From IMG/VR virus record IMGVR_UViG_2887127144_000001: a DNA stretch of 64,000 nucleotides. One strand, written 5' to 3'. This DNA is from a virus (lineage: Duplodnaviria > Caudoviricetes). The notes beneath the pieces were generated by a model. It did no database searches. It was not told where the DNA came from and saw nothing but the letters and a program-made list of their open reading frames with translations. A program made the position numbers and the translations under genes. Positions 1 through 64,000 of this stretch are shown here, one piece after another; position 1 is the first letter of the stretch, and every line of letters begins with the position of its first letter.

Positions 1-195
1 TTACTTTCCAATCGGGCATCCCCGCTCGATCCATTCGGTCACCTCGGCCAGTCGCCAGCGGGTATTCCGCCCGATCCGCACGGGCTGGGGGACTTTCCCG
101 CCGGAGAGCAGCCGCCACAGGGTGCGTTCGCTGACCTGCATGAGTTTGGCCAGCTCCTCGGCGGTGATCAGCCTGGGTGTCGTGTCGGTGCTCAT
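1..195 (-). CDS. AlpA/excisionase-family helix-turn-helix protein
   Basis: MSTDTTPRLITAEELAKLMQVSERTLWRLLSGGKVPQPVRIGRNTRWRLAEVTEWI is the typical AlpA/Xis winged-HTH pattern; ATG at 195 overlaps the upstream stop. Confidence 0.85.
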   Translation of the reverse strand: MSTDTTPRLITAEELAKLMQVSERTLWRLLSGGKVPQPVRIGRNTRWRLAEVTEWIERGCPIGK

Positions 196-788
196 CGCTC
201 GCGCTCCTTTTCCTTTACCAGCTCCGATTCGTGTCTCTCGACCCCCAGCCCCTTGCCGTCCAGGATGTTCTGGAGTCGTTCCTGGGGCGTCTGCCACCGC
301 TGCTCGATCTCGGGCAGCACTCTGTCCATATCCTCCGAACTCACTGCCGGAAGTTCTGGAGCGAGGTGTCTCACGGCGTCTGCCCCATCGGCCACCCGCT
401 GCCCGTAGGTCGCCGCGTCAGTCTCGCCGTAGTCTCGGACGCGGGCCGCGTGCTCGTCGGAGCGGATCTCTGCGGCCAGGGCCTTGATCTCCTCGGCGGA
501 GGGATAACTCTCTTCGATCCCATCCATCCAGAGGTCGGGCTCGTCGCCTTCCAGAACGCGTCTGATGACGCCCTCTCTTTGCGACTCGGTGAAACCCCTC
601 CAGTCGATCGCCACCGTCAGTGCATCGGGTCGCTGGCTTTCGCTCAGGTCGTCCCAGAAGTGGTATCCGCCTTCCTGCCCGGGGGCTGCCTGGATGACTC
701 GTCCCTCAGCGATAGAGACGACGTACAGGCCGGCCGTGAGGATCTCGATGGCGCTGGTGACCCGGTCCATCTGCTCGCGTGTCGGCAC
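192..788 (-). CDS. Hypothetical protein with charged C-terminal tail (KEKERER)
   Basis: 198-aa ORF coupled to the excisionase gene; shares a W-xD-x-E...DW-x-G segment with ORF 1967-2299. Confidence 0.7.
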   Translation of the reverse strand: MPTREQMDRVTSAIEILTAGLYVVSIAEGRVIQAAPGQEGGYHFWDDLSESQRPDALTVAIDWRGFTESQREGVIRRVLEGDEPDLWMDGIEESYPSAEEIKALAAEIRSDEHAARVRDYGETDAATYGQRVADGADAVRHLAPELPAVSSEDMDRVLPEIEQRWQTPQERLQNILDGKGLGVERHESELVKEKERER

Positions 789-840
789 GGTTATGTCCCC
801 CTGCCCACAATGGGATTGTCAATCTCCCCGCTATCCGAAG

Positions 841-3436: not shown

Positions 3437-5173
3437 CTACATCCCCGCCATCGCAAGCCCCGCTGCTGCCGCTGTCGCCAGCAGGAGGATCGCCGTCAGC
3501 CACACCTCCGCCATCCGGAGGAGGTGGCTTCGTCGCCCGTTTCCCGGGCTGAGTTCCTCGAAGTACCGCGTCAGCGTGGTCTGGATCGGCGGCACGCCAG
3601 GGGTGAAGGTGATCGCCGTCCGTGCCGGCAGCGCCACGACCTCCTCCGGCTTGAGAAGCTTTCTGGCCTGCTGCGACCAGTTCGCGTTGCTGCCCCAGGA
3701 CTCGGTCAGGCTCGTGCTCGGCTCCGGGCTGTTGACCTGCCGCGAGCCGCCGTTGTTCGTCCCGCCGGAGTCCACGACGATGGTCGACTCGCCCAGCCGG
3801 GAGCTCACGAACTCCGAGGTCTGCTGGTCGTTGACGCCGAAGAAGACCTGCGTGGTATTCGAGATAAGTGTGGTGTCGCCACCCTCGCCCCAGCACTTTC
3901 GGAGCTGCCCCATCGACTGGTAATAGAACTGGAGGCGCACGCCGTAGCCGCGATACTTGTCCACCGCGTCGTCGAGGCAGTCCATGCGCCCCAGGCTCGC
4001 GGCCTCGTCGAGGATGAAGTCCACCGCGTTCTGCTCCTGGAGGCCCCCATCCACGACCGCCCGCAGGGCCGCACCGACCCACAGCCGCAGCAACCCGGCC
4101 TGGGGCGAGATCTGCTTGGGCGGCAGGACCAGGTAGAGCGTCATCCTCCCCTTGCGTAGGTCGGACAGGTCGAAGCTGCTGGACCTCGTGCTCGCTGCGA
4201 TGGCGGGCGTGTCGAGGAAGTTCATGAACCGGTTCGCCGTGCTCAGGACCGACCCGAGTTCCTTGTCCTTGAAGTTCGTGAGCTGGTTGCCGAGGCGGGC
4301 CACCATGCCCTCGTGGCCGGTCTCATTGCGCAGGACTTGGACGATCGCCTCTCGCTTGGCCGGGTCGGTCAGGAGCGTCCTCACGGCCTGCAGCGACCGG
4401 TTCTCGTCCCGCCCGTACAGCGTTACGGCGACGATGATGGCGGTGATCCAGAGTTCGGCGCTGTCGTTCCAGTACGGGTCCTTCTCCTCGCCCGTCCTGA
4501 TGACCATGGCGTTCGCGAGCGCCCGGCATTCGTCGATGAGCTGTGGCGACTTCGGATCGATCGAGTCGAGGGGGTTGAAGGTGTCGGGGCTCTGCGTGAC
4601 GACTGTGAACGGATCGAGCACCACGGTCTTGTGGCCGAACCTCTCCTGGCGATGCCTGGCGGTGATCTGGTAGTTCTCGCCCTTGAAGTCAATGACGACC
4701 ATCGACCGGGGGCTGTTGAGCAGGTGCGGGATGACGCAAGAGACTCCCTTGCCCACGCCGGTCGGGGCGAAGACCGCGATGTGGACGGCGTTCGAGAGGC
4801 GCACCAGGGCTGATTCCTGCCTGCCCCGCTGGAGCTTCCTCATCGAGTAGACGAACCGCTCGCACGCGACGCCGGCCGGGACACGCCTGTCGAACAGCCC
4901 ATTGAGCGATTCGAAGAATCCCCTCTTGGGCAGGGCGATCCGCCCGATGAGCAGGCCCGGCTTGTCGGACAGCAGCCCGGCTCGCTCCAGGTCGTCCGCG
5001 TCCGCCCATCGGGCCGTGCCGTGGCTGGTGAGCCGGACGACCTTGCGCCCGCCGAGATACACGACGGCAGCGGCGCCGACGATCAGGATCGCGGGGTATC
5101 GGAGCATGAAGGCGAAGCCGAGGGCGGCGATGCCGAGGATCCCGGCGATGAGGAGGGCGCGACAGAGTCGCAT
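3437..5173 (-). CDS. virD4: Type IV coupling protein, VirD4/TraG family
   Basis: N-terminal TM helices, HGTARWA motif, Walker A APTGVGKG, DFKGE, Walker B FILDEAASLG, QSMGQL. Confidence 0.92.
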   Translation of the reverse strand: MRLCRALLIAGILGIAALGFAFMLRYPAILIVGAAAVVYLGGRKVVRLTSHGTARWADADDLERAGLLSDKPGLLIGRIALPKRGFFESLNGLFDRRVPAGVACERFVYSMRKLQRGRQESALVRLSNAVHIAVFAPTGVGKGVSCVIPHLLNSPRSMVVIDFKGENYQITARHRQERFGHKTVVLDPFTVVTQSPDTFNPLDSIDPKSPQLIDECRALANAMVIRTGEEKDPYWNDSAELWITAIIVAVTLYGRDENRSLQAVRTLLTDPAKREAIVQVLRNETGHEGMVARLGNQLTNFKDKELGSVLSTANRFMNFLDTPAIAASTRSSSFDLSDLRKGRMTLYLVLPPKQISPQAGLLRLWVGAALRAVVDGGLQEQNAVDFILDEAASLGRMDCLDDAVDKYRGYGVRLQFYYQSMGQLRKCWGEGGDTTLISNTTQVFFGVNDQQTSEFVSSRLGESTIVVDSGGTNNGGSRQVNSPEPSTSLTESWGSNANWSQQARKLLKPEEVVALPARTAITFTPGVPPIQTTLTRYFEELSPGNGRRSHLLRMAEVWLTAILLLATAAAAGLAMAGM

Positions 5174-5466
5174 GGCTGGTTCTCCTGATTGGGACGACGA
5201 CGAGCGAGGGCGGCAAGGAACGCCACAAGGGCAGCGCCTCCGGACAGCACCGTGAACCGCTGCATCCACTGGGCATTACGAACGGCTAGGATCTGCTCTT
5301 GGCTGGGCTTTGCCTTGAGCGGGTTGGGCTGGTCGAAGAAGTCGAGGTTGCCCTCGATCTCCTCCGCCGCCCGTGGGACGCTGCTGGCCTTGTCGATGAG
5401 GGCGACCGACCGCTGGTAGCAGCACACCGCGCAGACCGTGAGCGCGGCGGCGATGATGAGCCGCAT
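5083..5466 (-). CDS. Hypothetical membrane protein upstream of virD4
   Basis: GGAGG RBS; hydrophobic N-terminus and a second TM segment; overlaps the virD4 start. Confidence 0.6.
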   Translation of the reverse strand: MRLIIAAALTVCAVCCYQRSVALIDKASSVPRAAEEIEGNLDFFDQPNPLKAKPSQEQILAVRNAQWMQRFTVLSGGAALVAFLAALARRRPNQENQPCDSVAPSSSPGSSASPPSASPSCSDTPRS

Positions 5467-5654: not shown

Positions 5655-6443
5655 TCACCCAGCCTTCGCCTTGTCCCTGCACACAGCCTGAAGCGTTTTG
5701 GCGTCGAGGCCCTGGTCGCGGCCCTTCCGCATTTCCTTTTGCGCTTCCTGCACGGCCTCGATGGCCTCATCCAGCGTCATGTCGTCGCCGGAGATCGTGA
5801 CCGTGGTTCCGTTGGTCAGGGCGATCTTGATCTTGCTGGCTCGAACTGCGGGCGCTGCGCTGGCTCGCTTCTTCCGCCCCTGCTGCTCCAGCATGTCGCG
5901 GCTGGCGCCTGACAGCTTTAGGGCCAGGAGCGCGGGCTGGTCATCCGGCGGCAGCTTGCTGATCGCGTAGATGTCGCTAATGCCCAGCTTGCCCTCTCGC
6001 AGCGCCTCCTGCGCCTCGGGGATGCACCGCGATGGCGAGAGCAGCCGCGTCACCGTGGACGGGTCGAGGTGCAGATGCTCGGCCAGCTCCTTGCCCTGCC
6101 AGCCGTTCAGCTCCAGCAGCTCCCGGCACGCCTGCCACTTCTCGTAGGGCGTCAGGTCGGAGCGGTGGATGTTCTCGGTCAGCTGCATCCCACGCACCTG
6201 CGCTGTGGACAGCTCCCCGTCCACGACGATGACCTGGAGCGATTCGAGGCCGACCAAGGCGGCGGCCCGGTATCGCCTGTGCCCGGCGATGATCGTCCCG
6301 TCCGGCCGCGCCAGCACTGGCTGAAGCTGCCGCTCCCGAAGCGACTCGCCGAGGAGCCGCAGTTCACATTCGTCGTAGGTCTGCCTGGCCTGCCCCGTGT
6401 CGGGCTTGAAGAAGGCCAGCGGCTTGATCTCGAGTTTCGGCAT
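5655..6443 (-). CDS. parB: ParB/RepB/Spo0J family protein
   Basis: LQPVLARPDGTIIAGHRRYRAA (GxRR arginine patch), ENIHRSDLTPYE, central HTH. No parA in the window. Confidence 0.9.
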   Translation of the reverse strand: MPKLEIKPLAFFKPDTGQARQTYDECELRLLGESLRERQLQPVLARPDGTIIAGHRRYRAAALVGLESLQVIVVDGELSTAQVRGMQLTENIHRSDLTPYEKWQACRELLELNGWQGKELAEHLHLDPSTVTRLLSPSRCIPEAQEALREGKLGISDIYAISKLPPDDQPALLALKLSGASRDMLEQQGRKKRASAAPAVRASKIKIALTNGTTVTISGDDMTLDEAIEAVQEAQKEMRKGRDQGLDAKTLQAVCRDKAKAG

Positions 6444-7246: not shown

Positions 7247-7311
7247 TAACAACGAAGGGGTGCAGCCGGAAACTGCACCCCTCAATTAACCGCTAAATGG
7301 AGTTAGCGATT

Positions 7312-9108
7312 ATGGATTCTGTTTACAACAGTCCCATCCCTCTGGCAATATCCCCTGACGAACTGATCGTCGACAACTTCGCTGGTGGCGGCGGCGCGTC
7401 GCTCGGCATCGGCATGGCCCTTGGCCGGTCACCGGACATCGCCATCAACCACGACCAGGAAGCGATCGCGATGCACGCCGCGAACCATCCAGAGACGAAG
7501 CACTACTGCGAGGACGTCTGGCACGTCGACCCCGTCGAGGCCTGCGCCGGTCGCCCGGTCGGCCTCGCTTGGTTCAGCCCGGACTGCAAGCACTTCTCGA
7601 AGGCCAAGGGCGGCAAGCCCGTCAGCAAAAAGATCCGCGGCCTCGCCTGGGTCGTGATCCGGTGGGCGAAGGCCGTCAAGCCGCGCGTCATCATCCTGGA
7701 GAACGTCGAGGAGTTTCAGGACTGGGGACCGGTCCTCCCCAACGGCCAGCCGTGCCCATTGCGGAAGGGCTTAACTTTCCGCCGCTGGAAGTCCCAGCTC
7801 GAAAACCTTGGGTACCGCGTCGAGCTGAAAGTCCTTCGGGCGTCGGACTTCGGCACACCCACAATTCGCAAGCGGCTATTCATGGTCGCCCGCTGTGACG
7901 GACTGCCGATCCGTTGGCCTGAGCCTACGCACGCAGATCCCAAGAAGATCCAGCAAGACCTGTTCAGCATCAACCTTAAGCCCTGGCGGACCGCCGCCGA
8001 GTGCATCGACTGGTCGCTGCCGTGCCCGAGCATCTTCGATCGAGACCGTCCACTGGCGGAGAACACGCTCCGCCGGATCGCCGCTGGTATCCGCCGGTTC
8101 GTCATCGAGGCGAGCGAGCCGTTCATCGTCAACCTGACCCATCACGGCAGCGACCGCGTCGAATCGCTCGATGAGCCGTTTCGAACCGTGACGGGGGCGA
8201 ACCGCGGCGAGAAGGCGCTGGTGACGCCGTTCATCGCGCGAACCGCGCACGGCGACGTCGACAAGAACGGCAAGCGTCGGGGCAAAGGTCAGCATTCGGT
8301 AGGCGAGCCGCTCCATACGGTGACCGCGTCCGGCGACTATGCCATTTGCACACCGTTCCTTGCCGGCGTCGGTGGCCGGGCCGGTCAGTCCCCAGAGCGC
8401 TCGCCGGACATGCCCTATCAGACGATCACGGCGAAAGCGGATGCCGCTCTCGTATCCCCTATACTCGTCGGCACTGGCGGACCGGCCTACTCGGCAAAGC
8501 CCCGCCCTGCCGGGCAGCCCATCCACACGATGACGACAGACTCGCGGGCGGCCCTCGTGTCCGCGTTTCTTGCCCAGCACAACAGCGAGCGAGGGGACGG
8601 CGTGAAGGCGGGCCGTAAGGCAACCGAGCCTGTGAGCACGATCACGTCGTCCGGATCCCACCAGCAGGTAGTGACGTCCCACCTGCTCAAGCTCTACGGG
8701 ACTTGCAGGGACGGCCAGCCGGTGACCGAGCCGGTCTCGACGATCCGGGCCGAGGGGACCCACCTCGCGGAGGTCCGGGCCTTCCTGATCAAATACTTCG
8801 GCACCGACCAAGACCCGAGGCTCGAGGAACCATTGCATACCGTCACCAGCAAGGACCGATTCGGCCTGGTCACCGTCCGGGGCGAGGACTATGTGATCGT
8901 GGATATCGGCCTTCGGATGCTGACCCCGCCCGAACTCTACCGGGCGCAGGGCTTCCCCGAGCACTACCTGATCAGCCCGGTCATCGGCGGCAAGCGGCTC
9001 AGCAAGACCGCCCAGGTCCGGATGTGCGGCAACTCGGTCTGCCCGCCGATCGCGGCCGCGGTTGCGAGGGCGCAATTTGAAACCGCTCCTCTGGCGAGGG
9101 CGGCATGA
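7312..9108 (+). CDS. DNA (cytosine-5) methyltransferase, phage type
   Basis: Motif I DNFAGGGGAS, motif IV SPDC, motif VI ENVEEF, motif VIII RKRLF, motif X GNSVCP. Start 7312 chosen from the GGAG RBS (in-frame 7297 is possible). Confidence 0.93.
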   Translation: MDSVYNSPIPLAISPDELIVDNFAGGGGASLGIGMALGRSPDIAINHDQEAIAMHAANHPETKHYCEDVWHVDPVEACAGRPVGLAWFSPDCKHFSKAKGGKPVSKKIRGLAWVVIRWAKAVKPRVIILENVEEFQDWGPVLPNGQPCPLRKGLTFRRWKSQLENLGYRVELKVLRASDFGTPTIRKRLFMVARCDGLPIRWPEPTHADPKKIQQDLFSINLKPWRTAAECIDWSLPCPSIFDRDRPLAENTLRRIAAGIRRFVIEASEPFIVNLTHHGSDRVESLDEPFRTVTGANRGEKALVTPFIARTAHGDVDKNGKRRGKGQHSVGEPLHTVTASGDYAICTPFLAGVGGRAGQSPERSPDMPYQTITAKADAALVSPILVGTGGPAYSAKPRPAGQPIHTMTTDSRAALVSAFLAQHNSERGDGVKAGRKATEPVSTITSSGSHQQVVTSHLLKLYGTCRDGQPVTEPVSTIRAEGTHLAEVRAFLIKYFGTDQDPRLEEPLHTVTSKDRFGLVTVRGEDYVIVDIGLRMLTPPELYRAQGFPEHYLISPVIGGKRLSKTAQVRMCGNSVCPPIAAAVARAQFETAPLARAA

Positions 9109-10136
9109 CGATCACCATCCTCACCGGCTGCTGCCTCTCCCTGCTTGCGACGCTTCCCGACCAGTCGGTTCATACCTGCGTGACAAGTCCGCCGTATTGG
9201 GGACTGCGGGACTACGGCATCACCGGTCAGTTTGGTCTTGAGCAGACGCCTGCTGAGTTCATCCAGCACATGGTCCGCGTGTTCCGCGACGTGCGGCGGG
9301 TGCTGCGGGATAACGGCACTCTCTGGCTGAATATCGGGGACAGCTATGCCGGACACTCTGGAGGCAATCAAGGAAAGAATGGTTGGCGGTCTGACCGCAC
9401 TTTCACAGCCCGCGTGGCGGATAAGTTTGGGTCAGGCTTAAAGCCCAAGGACCTCGTCGGTATCCCGTGGCGCCTCGCGTTCGCCCTCCAGGACGACGGC
9501 TGGTTCCTTCGCAGCGACATCATCTGGTCGAAGCCGAACCCGATGCCCGAGAGCGTGACTGATCGGCCGACGAAGTCGCACGAGTACCTTTTCCTCCTGA
9601 CCAAGAGCGAGCGGTATTACTATGACCGCGAGGCCATCGCCGAGCCGTGCCGCTGGAATCCTGGCGACACCAAGATGCCGGATGGATGGGATACCGGTCC
9701 AGGGGCCCATGGTCGTTATCACCGAGCCGGCCGCGAGCAAGGTGTTCGAATCAAGCGAAGCGGCAATAAAGAGCGGAAGTCCGGTTCTGCGCGTGGCTGC
9801 CCAGAAGGGACAGGGGCGAACGTGTGCGGGTCAGTACCGTGGGAAGGAACGACCCGGAACAAGCGGTCCGTTTGGACGGTAGCGACCAAGCCCTTCTCCG
9901 ACGCCCACTTTGCCACCTACCCTCCTGAGCTGATCGAACCATGCGTCCTCGCAGGCAGCCCCATCGGAGGCACCGTTCTCGACCCATTCTTCGGTGCAGG
10001 AACGACTGGCTTGGTCGCTGACCGCCACGGGCGGCACTGCATCGGAATAGAACTCAACCCGGACTACGTGCAGATCGCCGAGCGGCGGCTTCGAAAGGAC
10101 GCGGGAATGTTCGCCGACATCGTCGTCGCGGCGTGA
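9105..10136 (+). CDS. DNA amino-methyltransferase (N4-C/N6-A, beta class)
   Basis: TSPPYW catalytic motif precedes the SAM-binding motif LDPFFGAGTT; HFATYP; ATGA overlap with the C5 MTase. Confidence 0.92.
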   Translation: MTITILTGCCLSLLATLPDQSVHTCVTSPPYWGLRDYGITGQFGLEQTPAEFIQHMVRVFRDVRRVLRDNGTLWLNIGDSYAGHSGGNQGKNGWRSDRTFTARVADKFGSGLKPKDLVGIPWRLAFALQDDGWFLRSDIIWSKPNPMPESVTDRPTKSHEYLFLLTKSERYYYDREAIAEPCRWNPGDTKMPDGWDTGPGAHGRYHRAGREQGVRIKRSGNKERKSGSARGCPEGTGANVCGSVPWEGTTRNKRSVWTVATKPFSDAHFATYPPELIEPCVLAGSPIGGTVLDPFFGAGTTGLVADRHGRHCIGIELNPDYVQIAERRLRKDAGMFADIVVAA

Positions 10137-18181: not shown

Positions 18182-18184
18182 ACC

Positions 18185-18604: not shown

Positions 18605-18611
18605 GGCGGTC

Positions 18612-19868: not shown

Positions 19869-19904
19869 ACGATTAATCAAAGGGCTGAGGCCCGAAGGAG
19901 GAGT

Positions 19905-26441: not shown

Positions 26442-26447
26442 CGGCAA

Positions 26448-28717: not shown

Positions 28718-28738
28718 CCATTGACAGGGAGAAACCAC

Positions 28739-45723: not shown

Positions 45724-45738
45724 CAACTGGGAACCCAT

Positions 45739-46383: not shown

Positions 46384-46387
46384 CAAC

Positions 46388-51016: not shown

Positions 51017-51043
51017 TAGCAACCAGAATGTAGAGGAATGTGA

Positions 51044-52600: not shown

Positions 52601-52618
52601 CGCGACGAGAGGCAGATC

Positions 52619-54003: not shown

Positions 54004-54007
54004 GCGG

Positions 54008-54460: not shown

Positions 54461-54894
54461 TGCCAACACCGGATAACGCACTCCAGGCCGGCATCTACGC
54501 CCGGCTGACCGGCTACGCGCCGCTGACCACGGCGTTGCGCGGGCAGCGAGTGTTCGATTATGTCCAACCGAAACAGTCTGCCCCCTACGTCGTGATCGGC
54601 GACGACACCATCGGGGACTTCAGCACCAAGAACGGCAACGGCTGGGACTGCACGCTCACGATCCACGTCTGGGACTTCGAGAAGGCGGGCCGCAAGTCGG
54701 TCAAGGCACTGCTCGGGCACATTTACGACGCGCTACACCGGCAGGAGGCCAGCGTCAGCGTTTCGGGCTTCGCACTTATCGAGCTGCGCTTCGACGGCTT
54801 CCAGGCCACGTTCCAGGAGACCGCTATCGAGGGAGAGAACGACCACTACTACCACGGCGTCGCGCGGTATCGGGCGCTCGTGCAAGCAACTTAG
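54460..54894 (+). CDS. Tail terminator (DUF3168 family)
   Basis: ALQAGIYARL, VFDYV, PYVVIG, TIHVW, HGVARYRA. Confidence 0.88.
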   Translation: MPTPDNALQAGIYARLTGYAPLTTALRGQRVFDYVQPKQSAPYVVIGDDTIGDFSTKNGNGWDCTLTIHVWDFEKAGRKSVKALLGHIYDALHRQEASVSVSGFALIELRFDGFQATFQETAIEGENDHYYHGVARYRALVQAT

Positions 54895-54915
54895 AGCAAC
54901 ATCCAAGGAGGGATT

Positions 54916-55326
54916 ATGGCATTACAACGTGGCCGCGACATGGTCATCAAACTGGGTTCGGGGCCGTCCGCGCAGCTGATCGGGGGGCTGACCGAGACGT
55001 CCATCAGCATGAACGGCACCGTGATTGACGGCAGCACGAAAGACACCGAGGGCTGGCGAGAACTGGTGGAGGACGCAGCGCTCAAGTCGTTCAGCATCGC
55101 CTGCTCAGGCATGTTCAAGGACTCGACCACCGACGACCTGATGCGTCAGAAGGCGTTCGGCCAGACCATCGACACCTACACCCTGGTCTTCCCGAACGGC
55201 GACACCATCGTGTGCGACTTCCAGATCACCGGCTACAGCCGAGCCGGTTCGGTCGAGGGCGTGGAGACCTACAACTACACGCTCGAAAGCTCCGGCATCC
55301 CCGTATTCACCAAAGCCTCAATCTAA
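54916..55326 (+). CDS. Major tail tube protein (TP901-1/GTA-like)
   Basis: QRGRDMVIK, GWREL...SFSIACSGMF, FQIT-x-Y-x-x-AG, LESSG. Confidence 0.88.
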   Translation: MALQRGRDMVIKLGSGPSAQLIGGLTETSISMNGTVIDGSTKDTEGWRELVEDAALKSFSIACSGMFKDSTTDDLMRQKAFGQTIDTYTLVFPNGDTIVCDFQITGYSRAGSVEGVETYNYTLESSGIPVFTKASI

Positions 55327-55338
55327 AGGAGATAACCT

Positions 55339-55695
55339 ATGGGCACCCTGACTGTTCAATCCTGTGACCGCGACGGCCTGCAATACACCCTTGGCGCCGC
55401 AAGCACCTCGGACAACTTCGCCAACGACGGCAAGACGCTGCTGGTCTTCGTCAACGCCAACGCATCCTCGCGCACGTTGACCATCGCGGCCAACGACACC
55501 ACCAAGACCGGCTACGGCGACATCGACGTGCCGAACACGACCATCACCGTCCCCGGCTCCGGTACCAACGGCGGCCGCCTGATCGTGGGTTTCTTCCCCC
55601 AGGCCCGCTTCAACGACGTCGGCGGCCGCGTGAACTACACGCTCGACAACGCCACGGACATGTCCGTAGCCGCCGTCAGCGTGGCCTCCCAGTGA
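55339..55695 (+). CDS. Hypothetical virion protein
   Basis: AAGGAG RBS; beta-rich; FANDGKTLL-x-F-x-N motif. Confidence 0.65.
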   Translation: MGTLTVQSCDRDGLQYTLGAASTSDNFANDGKTLLVFVNANASSRTLTIAANDTTKTGYGDIDVPNTTITVPGSGTNGGRLIVGFFPQARFNDVGGRVNYTLDNATDMSVAAVSVASQ

Positions 55696-56114
55696 CGGCC
55701 TTCGAACCTGCCCGCCCTCGTTATGTCCTTCCCTTCGCCGGGAAGGACTACGAGCTCTTCGGCACCATGGAGGTGATCGAGGCCATCGAGTTCTCCATGA
55801 AGGAAAGCGTGCTGGACGTCTGCTTCCGCGTCATCGACATGGGCGTTACGGATACCGCGAGAGTCATAGCGGCTATCCTCTCGGCCAGCGGGCACAAGGA
55901 TCACTCGCCTCGTTCGGTGAGTCAGGCCCTCATGGACATGGGTGTGGCCGGGCAAGCGTTCACCGTGCTGAGAGCACATATCAGCTGCTTCCTGCAGATC
56001 ATCCTGCAGCCCCCCGAACTGCGCGAGGAGACCGCGAAGCGGATGGGGGAGGTGATGGGGAAGTTCGACGCCCGGACCGCTTCCCCTGGCGAGAATACCA
56101 GCAGTTCTGCCTAG
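55692..56114 (+). CDS. Tail assembly chaperone (gpG-like)
   Basis: Position between tail tube and tape measure; G-rich slippery sites near the 3' end. Confidence 0.7.
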   Translation: MTAFEPARPRYVLPFAGKDYELFGTMEVIEAIEFSMKESVLDVCFRVIDMGVTDTARVIAAILSASGHKDHSPRSVSQALMDMGVAGQAFTVLRAHISCFLQIILQPPELREETAKRMGEVMGKFDARTASPGENTSSSA

Positions 56115-56320
56115 GGGCGCTGCGCTGGCCGCCATCCGAGTTCTGGAAGGCCACGACGTGGGACGTGATGCGGGCGCAGAAGGGATACCTGGCGAGCAAG
56201 GGCGTAAAGACAGACCAGCCGCATCAGCACAAGCCCACTAGCGAGGACGTGAAGCGATGGAAGGCGTTGATTCGGGAGGCCGAGATTGAAGAAGCCAAGC
56301 ATAAGCAGGAAGCGAAATGA
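56045..56320 (+). CDS. Tail assembly chaperone extension (gpT-like), -1 frame
   Basis: The -1 frame is open to TGA 56318-56320 and reads ...FCLGALRWPPSEFWKATTWDV..., a typical gpT motif. Confidence 0.65.
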   Translation, partial: GGGDGEVRRPDRFPWREYQQFCLGALRWPPSEFWKATTWDVMRAQKGYLASKGVKTDQPHQHKPTSEDVKRWKALIREAEIEEAKHKQEAK

Positions 56321-58047
56321 CGGATATCGGTGAACTCGTAGTCAGGATCAAGGCCGACGCTGCTCAACTGGAGCGCGAGATCAAGAAGGCGAACGGCGTC
56401 GTCAAGAAGAGCGCAGGAGAGATGGAGCTTTCCGTCAGCAGCCTGCGTCGGCAGTTCATCGCACTGACCGCGGCCATCGGCGGAGCCCAGATCGTTCGGT
56501 CGATCATGACCTACGAGAAGCTGCAAGCGTCGCTCAAGACCGTGACGGGCTCCGCCGAGGCTGCCAGTCGGGCTTTCTCCCTGATCGAGGGCTTCGCTGC
56601 GACGACCCCGTTTTCGCTGGAGCAGGTAACTGCCGCATTCATCAAGCTGAAGGCCCTTGGCCTGACTCCTTCCGAGGAAGCGTTGCGCTCCTACGGGAAC
56701 ACCGCCTCCGCGATGGGCAAGTCTCTCAATCAGATGATCGAGGCCGTCGCCGACGCGACTACCGGTGAGTTTGAACGCCTGAAGGAGTTCGGGATTAAGA
56801 CCCGCCAGGAAGGCGACTCCGTGGTGTTCACCTTCCAGGGGATGTCGACCAAGGTCGGTAAGAATGCGGCGGAGATCGAAGGCTATCTCCGCAAGATCGG
56901 CGACGTGAACTTCGCCGGGGCGATGAAAGAGCAGGAGAACACGGTCAGCACCGCCCTGTCCAACATGGGGGACAGTTTCGGCAAGCTTGCCAAGCAGATC
57001 GGCGACGCCGGCCTCAGCGAGATCATCATCGCGATTGCTAACACGATCCGCTCAATGAACGAGGAGATGGCGGAGACGATCCGCCTGATGACTCAGATCA
57101 ATCAGGCAGGCACGGCGAACAATACTGCCTCTCCGATCGACCTTCAGGACAACTTCCCCACCACGACGGATCGGATGCGATTTGGCCAGCGCCCGAGGAG
57201 GGCATCGCAGGTCAGCGACACCCCATTCGGCCCTGAGTTTCAGCAGCCACGGTCCGCTTCCGTGGACGAGAAGGCGGTCGAGAGGATCAAGAAGGGGCGA
57301 GAGGCGCTGTCAGACTACAACCGCGCCCTCCGCGAGGAGCAAGTGCTTCTCGGCCTCTCTGGCCGCGACCGGGCTGCGCAGGAGTCGAGATTTCGCGTGG
57401 AGGAGATAGCCCGCAAAAGCGGCATCAAGCTCACAAATGAGCAGATCGAGGCGAACGCCGAACTCGCGGCCTCGAATTACGACCTGCAGGAGGCGCAGGA
57501 AAAAATGAAAGAATCTATGCGGGAGGCGGAGCAGATCCGCGCCCTGTTCTACGATCGCCTGACCAGCAGCCTGACCGACGTAGTGTTCCGCGCCAACAGC
57601 GCCCGCGACGCAATGCTCGGGTTCGCCGAATCCATCGCCCGCGCCGCCTTCGAGCGAAAGGTTGCCGGGCCGCTGGCAGATGCCCTAGTCGGCAGAAACG
57701 GCGGAACCGGCCTGTTGGACAGTGTCTTCGACAGCATTGGCGGCGCGTTCGGAGGCTTCTTCGCAGACGGTGGCCGCCCTCCAGTGGGCGTCCCGTCCAT
57801 CGTCGGTGAGCGCGGGCCGGAGCTATTCGTGCCTGATTCAGCCGGCACCGTCATCCCGAACCACTCGCTCGGCGGGCAGTCCGTGACCGTGTACCAGAGC
57901 TTCAACCTGAACCCGGGGGCCACCGAGCAGACCGTGGCCCAGCTCCGCAACCTGGTGCCGAGCATCATGGCCGAGACCAAGGCCGCGGTGTTCGCCGAAA
58001 TGCAGCGTGGCGGCACGGGTAGCAAGATCATCGGAGCGAGGAACTGA
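56317..58047 (+). CDS. Tail tape measure protein
   Basis: IGELVVRIKAD start, FAATTPFSLEQV, TGEFERLKEFG, FADGG-x-P...VGERGPELFVP. Confidence 0.92.
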   Translation: MTDIGELVVRIKADAAQLEREIKKANGVVKKSAGEMELSVSSLRRQFIALTAAIGGAQIVRSIMTYEKLQASLKTVTGSAEAASRAFSLIEGFAATTPFSLEQVTAAFIKLKALGLTPSEEALRSYGNTASAMGKSLNQMIEAVADATTGEFERLKEFGIKTRQEGDSVVFTFQGMSTKVGKNAAEIEGYLRKIGDVNFAGAMKEQENTVSTALSNMGDSFGKLAKQIGDAGLSEIIIAIANTIRSMNEEMAETIRLMTQINQAGTANNTASPIDLQDNFPTTTDRMRFGQRPRRASQVSDTPFGPEFQQPRSASVDEKAVERIKKGREALSDYNRALREEQVLLGLSGRDRAAQESRFRVEEIARKSGIKLTNEQIEANAELAASNYDLQEAQEKMKESMREAEQIRALFYDRLTSSLTDVVFRANSARDAMLGFAESIARAAFERKVAGPLADALVGRNGGTGLLDSVFDSIGGAFGGFFADGGRPPVGVPSIVGERGPELFVPDSAGTVIPNHSLGGQSVTVYQSFNLNPGATEQTVAQLRNLVPSIMAETKAAVFAEMQRGGTGSKIIGARN

Positions 58048-58652
58048 TGCCCATCGACATGCCCACCCTCCCAGGATTCAACGGCAGCCGCTTCGGTTTG
58101 GAGACAAATACCCAGCGGTTCGAGAGCCCCTTCACCCGCTCCGTGCAGCGAGTCGCCCTCGGCGGCTCCCGATGGATCGCGACCTACAGCCTCCCCCCGA
58201 TGAAGCGGGAGCGGGCCGCCGAGTGGCAGGCCTTCTTCCTGAATCTGGAGGGCGGGGCGAACACGTTCAACGCCTTCGACCCGGACGCAAGGCGTCCGCG
58301 AGGGGTGGCGACTGGCTCGCCGCTTGTGAAGGGCGGTTCCCAGACCGGCAGCACGCTGAACATCGACGGCGCGACCGCGAACATCCTGGCATGGCTCCGG
58401 CCCGGCGACTACTTCTCGGTGAACGGCGAGTTGAAGATGGTCACCGCCCCGGCGAACACGGACAGCAGCGGTGAGGCGACGATCAGCTTCAAGCCCGCCT
58501 TGCGGAACAGCCCCCCGGACAATACGCCCATCATTCTCGACAAGCCGACCTGCACCATGGCCCTGGTGGACGACCAGCAGGCCATCTGGGAGTGCGACGT
58601 GGTCGGTCTGTACCAGCCTAAGACGTTCTCGGCGATCGAGGTGTTTAGCTGA
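58047..58652 (+). CDS. Distal tail protein (Dit-like)
   Basis: FESPFT-x-x-x-Q, W-x-A-x-x-SLPP, AFF-x-x-L-x-G, GDYFSVNG, I-x-F-x-PALR; follows the tape measure gene. Confidence 0.8.
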   Translation: MPIDMPTLPGFNGSRFGLETNTQRFESPFTRSVQRVALGGSRWIATYSLPPMKRERAAEWQAFFLNLEGGANTFNAFDPDARRPRGVATGSPLVKGGSQTGSTLNIDGATANILAWLRPGDYFSVNGELKMVTAPANTDSSGEATISFKPALRNSPPDNTPIILDKPTCTMALVDDQQAIWECDVVGLYQPKTFSAIEVFS

Positions 58653-58920
58653 GGAACGGCTCTACTGGACCACTACGTGCCTGCCCATGAACAGGAGATG
58701 GAGGCCCGTTGCCCGGTCGTAGTAGATGACGAACAGCGGTCGGCCTTCCGAATCCGTTGCCCTCATCAAGTGGCACAGCTCGTGTCGTTTAACCCTGACG
58801 CAGCCGCCGAGATTCGCCTGATCGATGGCGGACTCCAGCGCAGCCTGCTGGGAAGGTCGATTCGATTCGGTCTCCATACGCCGTCAACCGTATCAGAAAC
58901 AACATAGCCGTCAACGATTT

Positions 58921-59835
58921 ATGACCGACACCCTGAACCTAGACCGCGCCATCCCGACCCTGACCGAGGAATTCGACCGCCTGCTCGAGTGGCGACGGGG
59001 CTGCACGCAGGTAGACGCCAAGCCGCTCCCGTTGAACGACCCCGGCTTCAATTGGGCCGCCGGATACGTCTGGAACCACCCGATCGTAGGCCCTGACGCG
59101 CCGAAGGAGAAGTGGCCCGCAAAGAAAGCCGCCTCCTACCCGGCGTGGACCTCGAACCTTGGCTCCGGCGCCGTGGATGTCTGTCCGAATGGCGACATGA
59201 TCCGCAGAATGGGCCGCAGCCTGGGGCCGTTCGACCTGTCGGGCAGCCAGGAACTTCTGGTATCGGCGAAGCCGCTGCCCGCCTACCTGGCCAAGACCGT
59301 TGGCCCCCAGGACCGGGTGAACGGCGCGGCCCCCGCCTACATGGGCGGGGCCTTCGTCAGCTTCCCCTACTCGCAGACCTTCGGCGTGTTCGAGATGCGG
59401 GCAAGGATCGCCAAAGGCAAGGGCCTCTGGCCTGCGTTCTGGCTGCTGCCGTGCGACCACTCCTGGCCGCCCGAGATCGACGTGATGGAGGTGCTCGGCA
59501 AGAGCCCCGAGACCGTCGTCTCGACCCTCCACTTCAAGGACCCGTCCGGCAAGCACAAGCAGGCGTCCGGGATCCTCAAGGGGGCTGACCTGAGCCTCGC
59601 AGTCCACGATTACGCCGTGGACTGGGGGCCGGAGGTCATCCGCTTCTACCTCGACGGCCGCCTGTTCTTCACCCATCCGACCCCTGCCTCCATGAAGAAG
59701 CCGCATTACCTGATCGTTGACCACGCCGTCGGCGGCCCGAAAAGCTGGCCAGGAGCGCCAGACGCGACCACCAAATTCCCCGCCCAGATGAGGATCTCCC
59801 ACATCCGCGCCTGGCAGCGGCCCGAGTACCTATGA
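58921..59835 (+). CDS. GH16 glycoside hydrolase (beta-glucanase/EPS depolymerase-like)
   Basis: FSQTFG-like YSQTFGVFEMRA, GLWPAFWLLP, catalytic EIDVME, HDYAVDW, FYLDG. Confidence 0.9.
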   Translation: MTDTLNLDRAIPTLTEEFDRLLEWRRGCTQVDAKPLPLNDPGFNWAAGYVWNHPIVGPDAPKEKWPAKKAASYPAWTSNLGSGAVDVCPNGDMIRRMGRSLGPFDLSGSQELLVSAKPLPAYLAKTVGPQDRVNGAAPAYMGGAFVSFPYSQTFGVFEMRARIAKGKGLWPAFWLLPCDHSWPPEIDVMEVLGKSPETVVSTLHFKDPSGKHKQASGILKGADLSLAVHDYAVDWGPEVIRFYLDGRLFFTHPTPASMKKPHYLIVDHAVGGPKSWPGAPDATTKFPAQMRISHIRAWQRPEYL

Positions 59836-60407
59836 CCGGAACCCGCGACGCAGCCACCGCCACCCTGACCGCCGCCGAGCAGGACCTCATCCTGCCCGTG
59901 CTGTTCGCCAAGCTGGAGTTCGACAGCGGCGACGTGCTGGCCCATTCCTGGCTGGGCGAGATCACCTGGGGAGGCGACACCTACCTCGGCATCGGCCAGT
60001 TCGGCGGGGTGAGCCCGGCGGGCGAGCCGAGCGACCTTTCTCGCTCCGGCCTGTCCCTGACGCTCTCGAACATCCCCGGTGCCATGGGGGCGCTCGTCCT
60101 GGGCGAGTACTACCAGCGCCGCCGGGCCACGCTGTATCTGGGCTACCTCGACCAGACGACGATGCAACTCGTGGACGACCCCGTGATCGTCTACCGCGGC
60201 CGCATGGACAACTCGCGCATCAAGCAGGACGGGAAGACCTTCACGGTGACGGTCAACGTCGAGAGCGCCTTCGCCGCGTGGGACAAGCCGCAGATCAGGC
60301 GGTTCAACAACGCCTATCAGCAGTCGGTGTACCCCGGCGACCGGGGCTTCGAGTTCGCGGAGCAGGCAGCGGATAAACAAGTAGTTTGGGGCGGGAAGCT
60401 GACGTGA
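59832..60407 (+). CDS. Baseplate hub / minor tail protein
   Basis: ITWGGDTYLGIG, LSLTLS, YRGRMD, QQSVYPGDRGFEF...VVWG. Confidence 0.8.
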   Translation: MTGTRDAATATLTAAEQDLILPVLFAKLEFDSGDVLAHSWLGEITWGGDTYLGIGQFGGVSPAGEPSDLSRSGLSLTLSNIPGAMGALVLGEYYQRRRATLYLGYLDQTTMQLVDDPVIVYRGRMDNSRIKQDGKTFTVTVNVESAFAAWDKPQIRRFNNAYQQSVYPGDRGFEFAEQAADKQVVWGGKLT

Positions 60408-60799
60408 GGAATGAGGGCTGGGAGGCAATTCTCGCCGAGCACATCGAGCAGGCGAGGAACAATGCATTTGAATGGGGCATGAACGACTGCGCCCTCTGGT
60501 CAGCCGACTGGGTCAGGAAGGCCACGGGCGAGGACTTCGCCTCGACCTGGCGCGGCCGGTACACGACCGAGACTGAGCTGAACGCCCTGCTGGCCGCGAT
60601 GGACATCGAGTCGCCGGGCGACATCGCCTCCGAGCACCTGCCCGAGATGGACGTGCCGTTCGCCCAGCGGGGCGACATCGTGCTGCACCCGCAAGGCTGC
60701 CTCGGCATCTGCAACGGCCTGGACAGCTACTTCCTTATGGAACAGGGCGTGACCCGCATCCGCACCCGCAACTGCGTCAAAGCCTGGGCGGTGCGCTGA
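60404..60799 (+). CDS. NlpC/P60-like tail tip assembly protein
   Basis: FEWGMNDCALW-x-ADWV, AQRGDIV; position before the tip protein. Confidence 0.78.
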   Translation: MRNEGWEAILAEHIEQARNNAFEWGMNDCALWSADWVRKATGEDFASTWRGRYTTETELNALLAAMDIESPGDIASEHLPEMDVPFAQRGDIVLHPQGCLGICNGLDSYFLMEQGVTRIRTRNCVKAWAVR

Positions 60800-63426
60800 T
60801 GGGTCCGGCTGTTCCCGTCGTCGCGGCCCTCGCCGGCGCGGCAGCATCCTCGGCCATCGGGGCGACCGCCATCGGCGGCGCTTTCACCGTGGGCCTCCTG
60901 AACGCGGGCATCGGCTTCAGCGCGGGTGGCGCCATCGCATTCACGGGGGCCATCGCGGGCTTTGCCGTGTCCACGGCGGTGAACGCCGTCGGCAGCCGCA
61001 TGGTCTCGAGCAAGCCCAAGCCGGGCGCGAACACCGCCCAGGAGGTTCGCGGCCAATCGGTCATGGTCCGCTCCTCGGTCGAGAGCCACAAGATCATCTA
61101 CGGCCAGACCCGCGTTTCCGGCCCCATCGTGCTGGTCACCACCACGAACAGCGGTCCCGATTCCACCGGCGCGACGGTGACGGCCGACAACCTGTTCCTG
61201 CACATGGTCATCCCTCTTGCCGGGCACGAGGTGGAGGAGATCGGCACCGTTTATCTGAACGACGTGGCTGTCAGCCTCGACGGCAACGGCTTCGTGCAGA
61301 CCGCCCCGTACCTGAAGGACGGCAAGTCCTACGTCCGCATCAAGAAATACCTGGGAACCGCCAGCCAGACGGCGGACCCGCTGCTTATGGCGGAAGTGTC
61401 GAGCTGGACCTCGGCCCACCGCCTGCAGGGCATCCCGTACCTCTACATTCGGATGCAGTGGAACCCGGACGTCTACCCGAACGGCACGCCCAACGTCAGC
61501 GCCGTGGTCAAGGGCAAGAAGGTCTACGACCCCCGCAGCGGGCTGACCGCCTGGACCGACAACTCCGCCCTGTGCGCCCGCGACTACCTCGCGTCCGATT
61601 ACGGCTTCAACGTCGACGCCGACGAGTTGAACGACGACTTCTTCGAGGCCGCCGCCAACGTCTGCGACGAATCCGTGGCCCTCAACGCCGGCGGCACCCA
61701 GAAGCGGTACACGACCAATGGCGTGATCGACACGGCGGCCTCCCCGCTCGACAACCTGAACGCTCTGGTCGCGGCCATGGCCGGTACGGTCACCTACGTC
61801 CAGGGCAAGTTCCGGGCCTACGCGGGCGCCTACGACGCCCCGGTCGGCGACATCGACCTGGACATGGTGGTGGACGGCATCGACGTGGTCGAGAGCCCGC
61901 CCCGCCAGGACCTGTTCAACCGCGTGCAGGGCACCTACGTCGACCCGAACAAGAACTGGCAGCCGACCGATTTCCCACCGGTCACGAACAGCCTGTACGA
62001 GACGCAGGACGGGGGCGAGGTCATCCCCCGCGACGTGGTGCTGACGCTCACCAACCACCCCGAGGCCGCCCAGCGCATCGCCAAGATCATCCTGGAGCAG
62101 GGACGCCAGGGCATCCAGGTTGAGCTGAAGCTCAAGCACAGCGCCCTGTCCTACGCCGTGTGGGACACCGTGACGCTCACCAACACCCCGCTCGGCTGGG
62201 AGAGCAAGGTCTTCCGCATCAGTAACTTGCAGACGGAGGGCATCGGTCCGATCACCCTGAGCCTCCAGGAGGAGAGCGCGGCCAGCTACGACTGGGCGGC
62301 CGGTCAGGCGTCCACCTACGACGCGGCCCCGGACACGAACCTGCCCAGCCCGTTCAACGTGGCACCGCCCGTGTCGCTGACCGTGACCGAGGACTTGTAC
62401 GTCACCCGCGAGGGGGACGGCGTGAAGGCGAAGGCCATCATGAGCTGGGTCGCCTCGCCGGACGCCTTCATCTATCTATACCAGCCCGAATACAAGCTCG
62501 CGTCCGATACCGAGTGGATCCCGCTACCGCGTACCCCTTCTACGACCGCCGAGGTGTTGGACATCGCGCCGGACATCTACAACTTCCGGGTCAAGGCGAT
62601 CAACACGCTGAACGCTTCGTCGGTGTACACCGAGACCACCAAACAGATCTCGGGCCTCGCGGCCCCGCCGACCGCCCCGCAGAACCTCTACTGGACGGCC
62701 ATCGGCGGGTTGGCCTACCTGAATTGGGCTCCGTCCCCCGACCTCGACGTGCGCATCGGCGGCAAGTACGTCTTCCGCTACTCGCCGGACACTTCGGACG
62801 GGTGGGCGAACAGCACCACCATCGGCAACGCCGTGCCGGGCAGTTCGTCGCAGGCTCTCCTGCCGCTCAAGACGGGCATATATCTGGTGAAGGCCGAGGA
62901 CTCAAGCGGCGTGCAGTCATCCACCACCTCCAGCGTCATCGTGACGCAGGACACGATTTACGCCCTGTCGGTCATTGCCACGTTGACCGAGGACCCCACG
63001 TTCGGCGGTTCGAAGACCAACTGCTCGGTCTCCGGTGGCGTTCTCTCGCTCACCGACACAACCCTGCCCGGGACGTACCTGTTCAGCAGCAAGATGGACC
63101 TCGGGAGCGTAAAGCGGGTGCGCCTCACTGCGAAGTTAAAGGCCGCCGTGGTGAACCCATCCGACTTGTTCGACAGCCGCTCCGGATTGTTCGACGACGC
63201 GGAAGGCAGTTTCGACGGTGACGACACCGCGTCCGCTGATGCCGTGGTGTTCGTGCGGTCAACGCAGACTGATCCCAACGGCAGCCCGACGTGGACGGCT
63301 TGGAACCGACTGGATTCCGGTGAGTTCGTGGCAAGAGGGTTCGACTTCAAGGTAGAGCTGGTGTCATACGACTCAGCGTTCAACATCGAGATCAGCGAAT
63401 TAGAAGCAGAAGCAGCGGAGTTGTAA
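60799..63426 (+). CDS. Tail tip / central fibre (gpJ-like) protein with FN3-like repeats
   Basis: IIYGQTRVSG, VKGKKVYDPR, NSALCARDYL, FNRVQGTYVDP, YNFRVKAIN. Confidence 0.88.
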   Translation: MGPAVPVVAALAGAAASSAIGATAIGGAFTVGLLNAGIGFSAGGAIAFTGAIAGFAVSTAVNAVGSRMVSSKPKPGANTAQEVRGQSVMVRSSVESHKIIYGQTRVSGPIVLVTTTNSGPDSTGATVTADNLFLHMVIPLAGHEVEEIGTVYLNDVAVSLDGNGFVQTAPYLKDGKSYVRIKKYLGTASQTADPLLMAEVSSWTSAHRLQGIPYLYIRMQWNPDVYPNGTPNVSAVVKGKKVYDPRSGLTAWTDNSALCARDYLASDYGFNVDADELNDDFFEAAANVCDESVALNAGGTQKRYTTNGVIDTAASPLDNLNALVAAMAGTVTYVQGKFRAYAGAYDAPVGDIDLDMVVDGIDVVESPPRQDLFNRVQGTYVDPNKNWQPTDFPPVTNSLYETQDGGEVIPRDVVLTLTNHPEAAQRIAKIILEQGRQGIQVELKLKHSALSYAVWDTVTLTNTPLGWESKVFRISNLQTEGIGPITLSLQEESAASYDWAAGQASTYDAAPDTNLPSPFNVAPPVSLTVTEDLYVTREGDGVKAKAIMSWVASPDAFIYLYQPEYKLASDTEWIPLPRTPSTTAEVLDIAPDIYNFRVKAINTLNASSVYTETTKQISGLAAPPTAPQNLYWTAIGGLAYLNWAPSPDLDVRIGGKYVFRYSPDTSDGWANSTTIGNAVPGSSSQALLPLKTGIYLVKAEDSSGVQSSTTSSVIVTQDTIYALSVIATLTEDPTFGGSKTNCSVSGGVLSLTDTTLPGTYLFSSKMDLGSVKRVRLTAKLKAAVVNPSDLFDSRSGLFDDAEGSFDGDDTASADAVVFVRSTQTDPNGSPTWTAWNRLDSGEFVARGFDFKVELVSYDSAFNIEISELEAEAAEL

Positions 63427-64000
63427 GTGTCCCAGCATGATTTGGTAATCGATAACGCCACGTTCCCGTCCGTCCGTTCCGATGTGAACAGCGCCCTCCA
63501 GGCCCTCGGCAGCACGAGCAAGGGCAACAGCCGCCCGGCCACACCGTATGCCGGGCAGTTATGGCTCGACGACAACACCCCGAGCGCCACCGTGTGGTCG
63601 CTCTACATGTACGACGGCAGCGACGACATCAAGCTGGGCGAGTTCGACAGTACGGCCAACAACTTCATGCCGTTCGTCAACGGCGTCTCCCTGACCTCGT
63701 TCCTCTCGGCCTACACCTTCCCCGGCACGGAGGCCAGCCTCGCGTCGGCGTCCACCACGAACCTCGGCTCAACCGGCGTGTTCGCCGTCTCGATCACTGG
63801 CACGACGACCATTAACTCGTTCGGCAGTTCCGCCAGCACCTCGGCCCCGCTTTATTTCATCCGGTTCACCGGCGCCCTGACCATCACCCACAACGCCACC
63901 AGCCTGATCCTGCCGGGCGGGGCGAATATCACCACCGCGGCTGGGGCCACGGCGACAATGCTTTACCTCGGCTCGGGAAACTGGCGGATGCTCTCCTACG
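63427..64000 (+). CDS. Tail fibre protein, N-terminal part (truncated by the window)
   Basis: Hand translation MSQHDLVIDNATFPSVRSDVNSALQAL...YAGQLWLD...ITGTTTINSFG...LILPGGANITTAAG; open to the window end. Confidence 0.75.
   Translation, partial: MSQHDLVIDNATFPSVRSDVNSALQALGSTSKGNSRPATPYAGQLWLDDNTPSATVWSLYMYDGSDDIKLGEFDSTANNFMPFVNGVSLTSFLSAYTFPGTEASLASASTTNLGSTGVFAVSITGTTTINSFGSSASTSAPLYFIRFTGALTITHNATSLILPGGANITTAAGATATMLYLGSGNWRMLSY

Follow-up and report, generated by a model that had tools for sequence, protein, structure and literature searches.

As vehicles of gene flow, phages and conjugative elements are usually dealt with apart from each other, and recent work has presented them as cooperating neighbours, each with its own integrase. 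Integrative mobilizable elements (IMEs) carry an integrase and a relaxase with oriT, some of them also a coupling protein, and have no mating-pair genes. The closest described combinations are the tandems that phages form with integrative and conjugative elements (ICEs), together with nested Phage::ICE forms (Huang et al., Sci Adv 2026, PMC13651849); in the available portions of that report, the tandems are products of site-specific accretion, phage-encoded integrases excise them, and the authors state that they are not hybrids. The 'conjugative prophage' Phi1207.3 of Streptococcus pyogenes is likewise reported, in the portion available of its source, to move by conjugal transfer (PMC4260502), and a 2026 preprint, again as far as its available text goes, on megaplasmids carrying prophages is among the nearest items. 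Here we analyze a 64,000-nucleotide stretch of DNA (the window; IMG/VR record IMGVR_UViG_2887127144_000001) in which a relaxase and coupling-protein module adjoins a tailed-phage genome, and we compare this locus with these systems.

The window corresponds to bases 83-64082 of a 258-kb contig, C1, which has 82 further bases to the left of it (window coordinate = C1 coordinate minus 82), in a draft genome, G000, of 80 contigs (7.07 Mb, ∼64% G+C, 97.8% complete). It is likely to be part, the left two thirds, of a chimeric mobile element that is integrated as one unit of ∼95.7 kb plus an unassembled gap and has a single integrase. The layout would begin on another contig, C66, with a transfer-messenger RNA (tmRNA) gene containing the proximal attachment site (att) copy, a tyrosine integrase and a few open reading frames (ORFs); across the gap it would continue with an AlpA-type excisionase, a coupling protein, a ParB-like gene, methylases, regulators and a TrwC-type relaxase with a candidate origin of transfer (oriT). 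The middle would be a 43-kb tailed-phage genome that lacks an integrase and is otherwise complete (early region, replication, packaging, head, tail and lysis), and the element would end with the giant backbone gene for a methylase-helicase, with dinB, three tRNA genes, a nuclease gene and defence-like genes as cargo, and with the distal att copy. An earlier note on this DNA, made from the sequence alone, had proposed a phage-ICE hybrid; the fusion is borne out, in that one att pair encloses both parts and the order recurs in other genomes, whereas the conjugative part is of the IME type rather than an ICE, no VirB4 having been found.

The integrase was located by way of a second genome, G108. 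There, a homolog of the AlpA-type protein (78% amino acid [aa] identity) separates the backbone from the integrase and is succeeded by a 116-aa ORF, the tyrosine integrase itself and the tmRNA gene. In G000, the 116-aa ORF (74% aa identity to G108) and the integrase lie at the start of C66 (C66:2309-3979) and are followed by the tmRNA gene (C66:4158-4525); the integrase itself (C66:2735-3979) matches Phage_integrase at 2.8e-15 and shares 79% aa identity with its G108 counterpart. The 3' end of the tmRNA gene, over 27 bp at C66:4157-4183 (the proximal att copy), has a single further exact copy in the genome, at C1:91517-91491 (the distal copy, C1 91491-91517; E = 2.7e-7); the two are oriented as they would be if C1 and C66 met at their starts. 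From synteny with G108, and from a 245-aa ORF on C66 whose homologs in G099 and G183 fall within the interval from the coupling protein to the integrase, we infer that the two contigs are adjacent. The integrated unit thus measures 95,700 bp plus the assembly gap, and its one att pair encloses both the relaxase module and the phage. The integration site used in G021 was also considered as the site in G000; it corresponds to an uninterrupted stretch of G000 contig C80 and is therefore not the one used here.

No third att copy with up to six mismatches was found in C1 1-120 kb or C66 1-20 kb. The Phage_integrase, Recombinase and Resolvase models (PF00589, PF07508 and PF00239) have no match anywhere on C1, and the only rve match on that contig lies at 104 kb. 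ARAGORN, used for the tRNA and tmRNA gene search, found no tRNA gene in the window, and exact repeats shared by C1 25400-26700 and the first 130 kb of that contig do not exceed 14 bp. The phage segment accordingly shows no integrase or transposase of its own and no flanking att sites of the kind that would define a separate temperate prophage, and the junction between the two halves contains no integrase, tRNA gene or att core at 25.4-26.7 kb, just as the earlier note had described it. That note had also placed a single integrase to the left of the window, and one tyrosine integrase does exist, on the separate contig C66; the search for integrase genes and direct-repeat att pairs that it recommended yielded this one integrase and the one 27-bp pair around the whole unit. 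A separate integrase and att pair bounding only the part from 26.3 kb onward, which it had regarded as fatal to its proposal, was not found on C1.

The left half encodes a TrwC-like MOBF-type relaxase-helicase (22737..25475, minus strand), at the position and on the strand predicted earlier, with a Pfam TrwC match at 1.7e-60 followed by AAA_30 and UvrD_C_2 helicase domains. Its first 300 residues align to the TrwC relaxase-domain structure 1omh (E = 4.5e-28); in this alignment, Y16 and Y22 pair with both TrwC tyrosines and the histidine triad (H..HxH) is kept, residues that we take to be catalytic. A relaxase fold with paired tyrosines and a histidine triad, plus a C-terminal helicase, is what characterizes the MOBF family. 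The 350-bp spacer upstream of the gene contains, on the minus strand, a candidate oriT (25602..25787): the motif GCGATAGGGAT (25602-25612) and inverted repeats at 25668-25679/25700-25711 and 25742-25751/25778-25787, with a perfect 12-bp inverted repeat among the features of this spacer. Upstream of the relaxase, this motif is kept in G000, G108, G183 and L024 (a contig from a metagenome-assembled genome) and partly in G099. Directly downstream of the relaxase lies a conserved 170-aa ORF (22304..22816, minus strand) with no Pfam family, which travels with the relaxase in G108, G183, G021, G099, G119, G299, G406, G152 and G251.

The second transfer gene encodes a type IV coupling protein of the VirD4/TraG type (3437..5269, minus strand), with the Pfam domains T4SS-DNA_transf (4.7e-80), TrwB_AAD_bind and TraG-D_C. 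Its identity agrees with the first annotation, its extent does not: the ORF had been taken to end at 5173, which is an alternative internal ATG, and reaches 5269. Homologs with 47-53% aa identity are present in G108, G099, G183, G119, G299 and G060. At G021:C20 80703-80909, the coupling protein is a 57-aa remnant beside an intact relaxase (71% aa identity), and it may have been lost there. The AlpA/excisionase-family DNA-binding protein (98 aa) scores 29.3 bits against TIGR01764 (cut-off 28.8); here, too, the gene stands and its earlier extent (1-195) falls short of the ORF, which covers 1..297 on the minus strand.

These genes define the class of the element. An integration and excision module is present, consisting of the integrase at C66:2735-3979, the AlpA-type excisionase at window 1-297 and the 27-bp att pair, with the contig join deduced as above, and so are a relaxase and a coupling protein. 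A mating-pair formation system with a VirB4-type ATPase, which an ICE would have of its own, was not found. The search for VirB4 used two models: PF03135 found none in G000, G021 and G060, and PF12846 found none in G000, G108, G099, G119 and G183. Nor was any VirB4-like or mating-pair gene seen among the larger ORFs of the element, the set that the Pfam and PHROG scans took in rather than every ORF. An integrase, a relaxase with a candidate oriT and a coupling protein in an element in which no secretion system was found correspond to an IME; because no VirB4 was found, we assign the element, on its gene content, to the IME type, fused with a prophage, which it resembles more than an ICE.

The right-hand part of the window, with the sequence just beyond it, contains what is, by gene content, an intact-looking siphovirus (31-68 kb), as had been noticed before; the genes from TerS to the lysozyme gene could be identified. 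It begins at the position of an early region with leftward and rightward blocks of orphan ORFs (26286..31413, on both strands) that end in a VRR-NUC-like endonuclease (31051-31413; phrog_93, 4e-10). The label of a phage early operon, given before to the ORFs from 26286, follows from their position; the scanned ORFs in 26286-30710 belong to no Pfam family, and the sole PHROG match among them is weak (phrog_1103, E = 5.7e-4, on 28830-29228). The block is partly conserved beside the relaxase in G021, G099, G119, L024 and L077. There follows a replication and recombination module on both strands (31463..40130; a DEAD/SNF2 helicase, a Cas4-like exonuclease, DUF669, AAA_24 and DUF7173 proteins, a primase-polymerase and a phrog_8571 protein), which shares 72-95% aa identity with G108, L024 and L077; a search of genome contigs for related loci based on the helicase returned one locus, L024. 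Packaging and head genes (41091..47707, plus strand) encode TerS, TerL, the portal, a Mu-F-like protein, a protease and an HK97-type capsid. The connector and non-contractile tail genes (48658..64000, plus strand) encode an adaptor, a head-completion protein with a lectin domain, a tail-completion protein, a terminator, a major tail protein (136 aa), a tape measure and distal tail proteins, the last gene of the window continuing to window-equivalent 64647; a lysozyme gene follows beyond the window (C1 66473-67129). Tail-gene synteny extends to G108, G099, G060 and G299:C3. Terminase, portal, capsid, protease, tail and lysis genes, the structural complement of a temperate prophage, are thus all present, and the core phage genes are full length and intact in G000 and G099. 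A reading of the segment as a gene transfer agent was tried and rejected because replication genes, TerS and a lysozyme are all encoded, which does not agree with the definition of such agents. As side observations, the lectin domain of the head-completion protein is concanavalin/laminin-G-like and the gene is followed by one for a 518-aa beta-helix protein (window 49217-52600), and a tail protein carries a glycosyl hydrolase 16 domain (window 58825-59835).

To the right of the window, the backbone resumes with a giant gene for a 2142-aa protein (C1 68539-74967; L002 4540-10968), which has a weakly methylase-like N-terminus, an intein and an SNF2-type helicase C-terminus. G000 also carries two paralogous islands without a phage, on contigs C8 (128-159 kb) and C24 (5-26 kb), with coupling protein, ParB, giant protein and relaxase; their relaxases have 34-35% aa identity to that of the window. 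In both islands the giant gene is placed between ParB and the relaxase, which marks it as a backbone gene, and since, in the phage-bearing loci examined, its place is on the far side of the phage, the backbone flanks the phage on both sides. The intein of the giant protein (residues ∼927-1190) resembles the gp41-1 intein (3.5e-7) and contains a LAGLIDADG domain; the G060 homolog aligns on both sides of this stretch and not to the stretch itself.

The same arrangement recurs in other genomes. The search for relaxase-phage linkage that the earlier note had suggested was made in a sample of 401 genomes of the class and gave, at E ≤ 1e-150, relaxase matches in 12 genomes at 13 loci, eight of which have phage structural genes upstream of the relaxase (G000, G108, G099, G299:C3, G060, G119, G406 and G183). 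With pooled queries no phage was found at three loci (G152, G251 and G299:C4), and two loci are not assignable, the G021 contig ending 5.8 kb past the relaxase and G177 being fragmented. The interval from giant gene to relaxase in G299:C4 looked like mixed cargo with an integrase and not like a phage. Outside this sample, the linkage is seen in the contig L024, in an IMG/VR provirus recorded as one piece of 56.7 kb (G409; portal 70% and relaxase 69% identical) and in a 143-kb IMG/VR contig, L077, which is the closest relative (relaxase 87%) and has the same relaxase-phage adjacency. At the DNA level, both halves of the window gave only chance-size matches of 41-47 bp against phage and plasmid collections.

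The order of coupling protein, ParB, relaxase, a 41- to 48-kb phage segment and the giant methylase-helicase is found again in G108, G099, G119 and G183, with a relaxase-to-giant-gene distance of 41-48 kb in five loci. G108 and G099, which belong to different families, are colinear with G000 from the coupling protein through ParB, relaxase, early genes, packaging, head, tail and lysis to the giant protein, G108 over ∼82 kb. G119, G406 and G183 keep the backbone and the slot and carry other phage modules inside it, those of G119 and G406 comprising a terminase, a DUF4055 portal and a P22-type coat and that of G183 a tail module common to these two. At least three combinations of head and tail modules, with HK97-type or P22-type heads, occupy the same slot. 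The ends could be defined in two further genomes. In G108, a 22-bp exact tmRNA repeat bounds the unit, with copies 117.3 kb apart and no internal copy at up to five mismatches, and in G119 a 60-bp repeat (95% identical) overlapping a tRNA-Ser gene bounds a unit of 90 kb; the ends in G099 are left undefined, as the repeats near its integrase derive from a second integrase paralog ∼98 kb away. The phage segment of G183 also encodes a 510-aa protein with an N-terminal Acb1 anti-CBASS domain (7.4e-44; G183:C1 6753938-6755470, L042 17938-19470).

In none of the eight phage-bearing loci is there a PF00589 match between the relaxase and the giant gene, and in all eight the integrase lies beyond the coupling-protein end. 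Serine recombinases were likewise lacking from this interval in G000, G108 and G099, and rve transposases in G000. In the relaxase tree, which was rooted at the midpoint, all 10 phage-linked relaxases fall together with G299:C4 in one group (support 84/83), the label of three of the 10 (G021, L024 and L077) resting on early or replication genes only; the phage-less G152, G251, C8 and C24 lie outside this group, and the phage label needs two changes.

On the reading of the locus as one integrated chimeric element, the tmRNA repeats would be the sites at which the integrase and the AlpA-type protein release the whole unit as a circle, nicking by the relaxase would take place at the candidate oriT in the spacer upstream of its gene, and the coupling protein would pass the strand to a type IV secretion system. 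That system would be supplied in trans by a co-resident element, because none was found in the element itself. The phage module could build particles, one head of which would probably take only part of the 96-kb element, so that virions would act more as a transducing device than as a carrier of the whole genome. The earlier note cautioned that a combined element of more than 64 kb could exceed the head; the unit now measures ∼96 kb, about twice the length of its own phage segment, and packaging of all of it in one head appears unlikely, unless the capsid exceeds the size that the gene set would lead one to expect. That the element may spread both by virions and by conjugative mobilisation is a hypothesis.

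Several points weigh against the reading of a single chimeric element, and they are best considered with its rivals. The C1-C66 join is not assembled, and the ends of C1 share no sequence with any other contig end of G000 in an overlap test. As no VirB4 was found, the conjugative route would need an outside helper, or a secretion system of a kind that the two models do not recognize. Excision, transfer and particle formation are predictions from the gene content. The phage segment measures 41-48 kb in five loci, as a phage genome complete in itself would, whereas the units measure 90-117 kb; a passenger prophage accounts for this no less well than a whole-unit virus does. In G060, decay is evident, with five insertion sequence (IS) copies and with TerS, TerL and portal missing. 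The five copies are of one ORF pair (256 aa and 107 aa), presumably an IS element, and are scattered over G060:C1 5897623-5976676 (L015-L019); one of them abuts the Mu-F homolog at the place where TerS, TerL and portal are missing.

On the passenger-prophage reading, a phage once integrated into a mobilizable island would have shed both integrase and att sites and would now be carried passively, with no cooperation between the two parts and with the phage part decaying; we regard this as possible, though improbable. The ordinary phage-genome size of the interval from relaxase to giant gene favors it, as do the IS-mediated decay in G060, the phage-less relatives C8, C24, G152 and G251, and the nested Phage::ICE forms mentioned in the available text of PMC13651849. 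It does not readily explain why a tyrosine integrase has been kept in the segment at none of the eight phage-bearing loci, why, in G000 and G099, the core phage genes have stayed whole and at full length, or why genes of phage families are also scattered through the relaxase half. Furthermore, the three or more head and tail combinations in one slot would require repeated insertions of integrase-less phages or ongoing recombination with other phages.

It is doubtful, at the other extreme, that the locus stands for a true dual-route lineage, in which temperate phages would have permanently absorbed a module of relaxase, oriT and coupling protein under one common integrase and would leave the cell in particles or as a transferred strand. 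In hosts without a detectable VirB4, the relaxase might in addition serve the phage, for example by rolling-circle copying at the oriT next to the early genes that provides concatemers for a headful terminase.

Tandem accretion, in which two independent elements would have integrated successively at the same tmRNA hot spot, had been named as an alternative from the start and now appears very improbable. Accretion does occur at the tmRNA site, as seen from an extra degenerate att copy ∼0.8 kb inside the distal end in G108, and phage-ICE tandems formed in this way are documented in PMC13651849, as far as its available text goes. Two elements with their own integrases and a shared att copy between them are not what is found here, however: there is no third att copy (at up to six mismatches in G000 and five in G108), C1 lacks a second integrase, the phage has backbone genes on either side, and one internal order is kept in two families at two targets (tmRNA and tRNA-Ser). 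Misassembly, the other alternative raised at the outset, in which the junction at 26.1-26.35 kb would join unrelated pieces, can be dismissed almost outright despite the 80-contig draft state of G000, as the gene order across the junction is kept in G108, G021, L024 and L077 and partly in G099, G119 and G183. It is the recurrence of the fused order in other genomes, together with the lack of an integrase in eight phage segments, that makes both misassembly and simple tandem accretion unlikely.

The remaining genes of the left half include a ParB-like gene (5655..6443, minus strand; ParB_N 4.5e-10 and HTH_ParB; 70% aa identity in G108) and two cassettes of phage type within the conjugative half, the presence of which had been noted before and is upheld by strong PHROG matches. 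One encodes C5 and N6/N4 DNA methyltransferases (7297..10136, plus strand; Pfam, phrog_116 1.7e-103 and phrog_67 5e-76); the other consists of small ORFs of phage-associated families (16746..20862, plus strand; phrog_2164 3e-33, phrog_8593 1e-59 and phrog_4786 5e-61) and contains a helix-turn-helix (HTH) regulator (19234-19656, plus strand; HTH_3 4.7e-13). Between them (14230..15995) lie a further HTH regulator (minus strand; HTH_3/HTH_26) and a DUF932 protein (plus strand; 1.2e-42), the gene for the latter being kept at 53-57% aa identity in G108, G183, G119 and G021. Beside the relaxase and pointing away from it is a conserved small ORF (25814..26134, plus strand), with homologs in G108 (45% aa identity), L024 and L077 and a weak GemA match (8e-4) below the cut-off.

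Next to the giant gene, tRNA-Phe, tRNA-Tyr and tRNA-Met genes lie inside the element (C1 76240-76647; L002 12241-12648), with only 75-91% identity to the other G000 copies over the aligned stretches; the G183 element has an array of 20 tRNA genes beside its giant gene (G183:C1 6718288-6721012). A 436-aa gene next to the G000 cluster (C1 74968-76278) was first taken for an integrase and proved to encode a DinB-type polymerase, and a 70-nt tRNA-Leu(caa) reported by ARAGORN inside the giant ORF (C1 70945-71014; L002 6946-7015) is probably a false positive. The cargo that separates the giant gene from the distal att copy (C1 79651-87962; L002 15652 to L003 3963) includes genes for an SNase-type nuclease, a NOV_C/DUF3883 protein, an HNH_2 protein (90% aa identity to a G108 gene) and an ORC/CDC6-like ATPase, and in these families it looks like a defence-island set. 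Contigs from four metagenome runs (≤0.33 of words) over C1 84000-103999 covered the host side from about L003 7338, left the element side almost bare and provided no bridge across an empty site; they were not used as evidence.

If both routes work, an element of this kind could cross barriers to either alone, that is, the receptor range of the phage and the cell contact needed for conjugation. In two bacterial families, the phage has dispensed with an integrase of its own and is enclosed by backbone genes of a mobilizable island, with its head and tail modules swapped. A 96-kb unit with a 43-kb phage segment raises the question of what the particles carry, and the defined att pairs give exact primers for excision tests.

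Compared with known systems, the element is like IMEs in having an integrase, an excisionase, a relaxase with a candidate oriT and a coupling protein, with no VirB4 found; to our knowledge, no IME contains a complete tailed-phage genome. It is also like temperate tailed phages that integrate at ssrA or tRNA genes, in that att, int, xis, early region, replication, packaging, head, tail, lysis, cargo and att follow one another in a lambdoid layout, and unlike them in that ∼25 kb with relaxase, coupling-protein, ParB and methylase genes separates xis from the early region and in that the unit reaches about twice the size of its own phage segment. With phage-plasmids such as P1, N15 and SSU5, as the available portions of PMC7969092 and PMC10879196 describe them, it shares the nature of a chimera between a phage and a second mobile element that exchanges modules with both pools; those are kept as plasmids, whereas the present element is chromosomal, at the tmRNA gene. 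Phi1207.3 differs in being a 52-kb prophage from another phylum, according to the portion available of PMC4260502. A full-text literature search, to which the supplementary lists of PMC13651849 did not belong and in which sources were available in part, found no description of an integrase-less phage fixed inside an island with relaxase and coupling protein. The phage-ICE tandems and nested forms of PMC13651849, again as portrayed in its available text, likewise join a prophage and a conjugation-type integrative element in one co-transferable stretch, the nested class being a phage inside an ICE. Unlike the tandems, the present phage has neither an integrase nor flanking att sites, one integrase serves the whole, no secretion system was found in the conjugation part, and the fusion has been inherited across genera with exchange of phage modules. 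Joined phages and conjugation-type elements are thus already known; judged by its gene order and content, an integrase-less phage fixed in a mobilizable island would be a new form of them.

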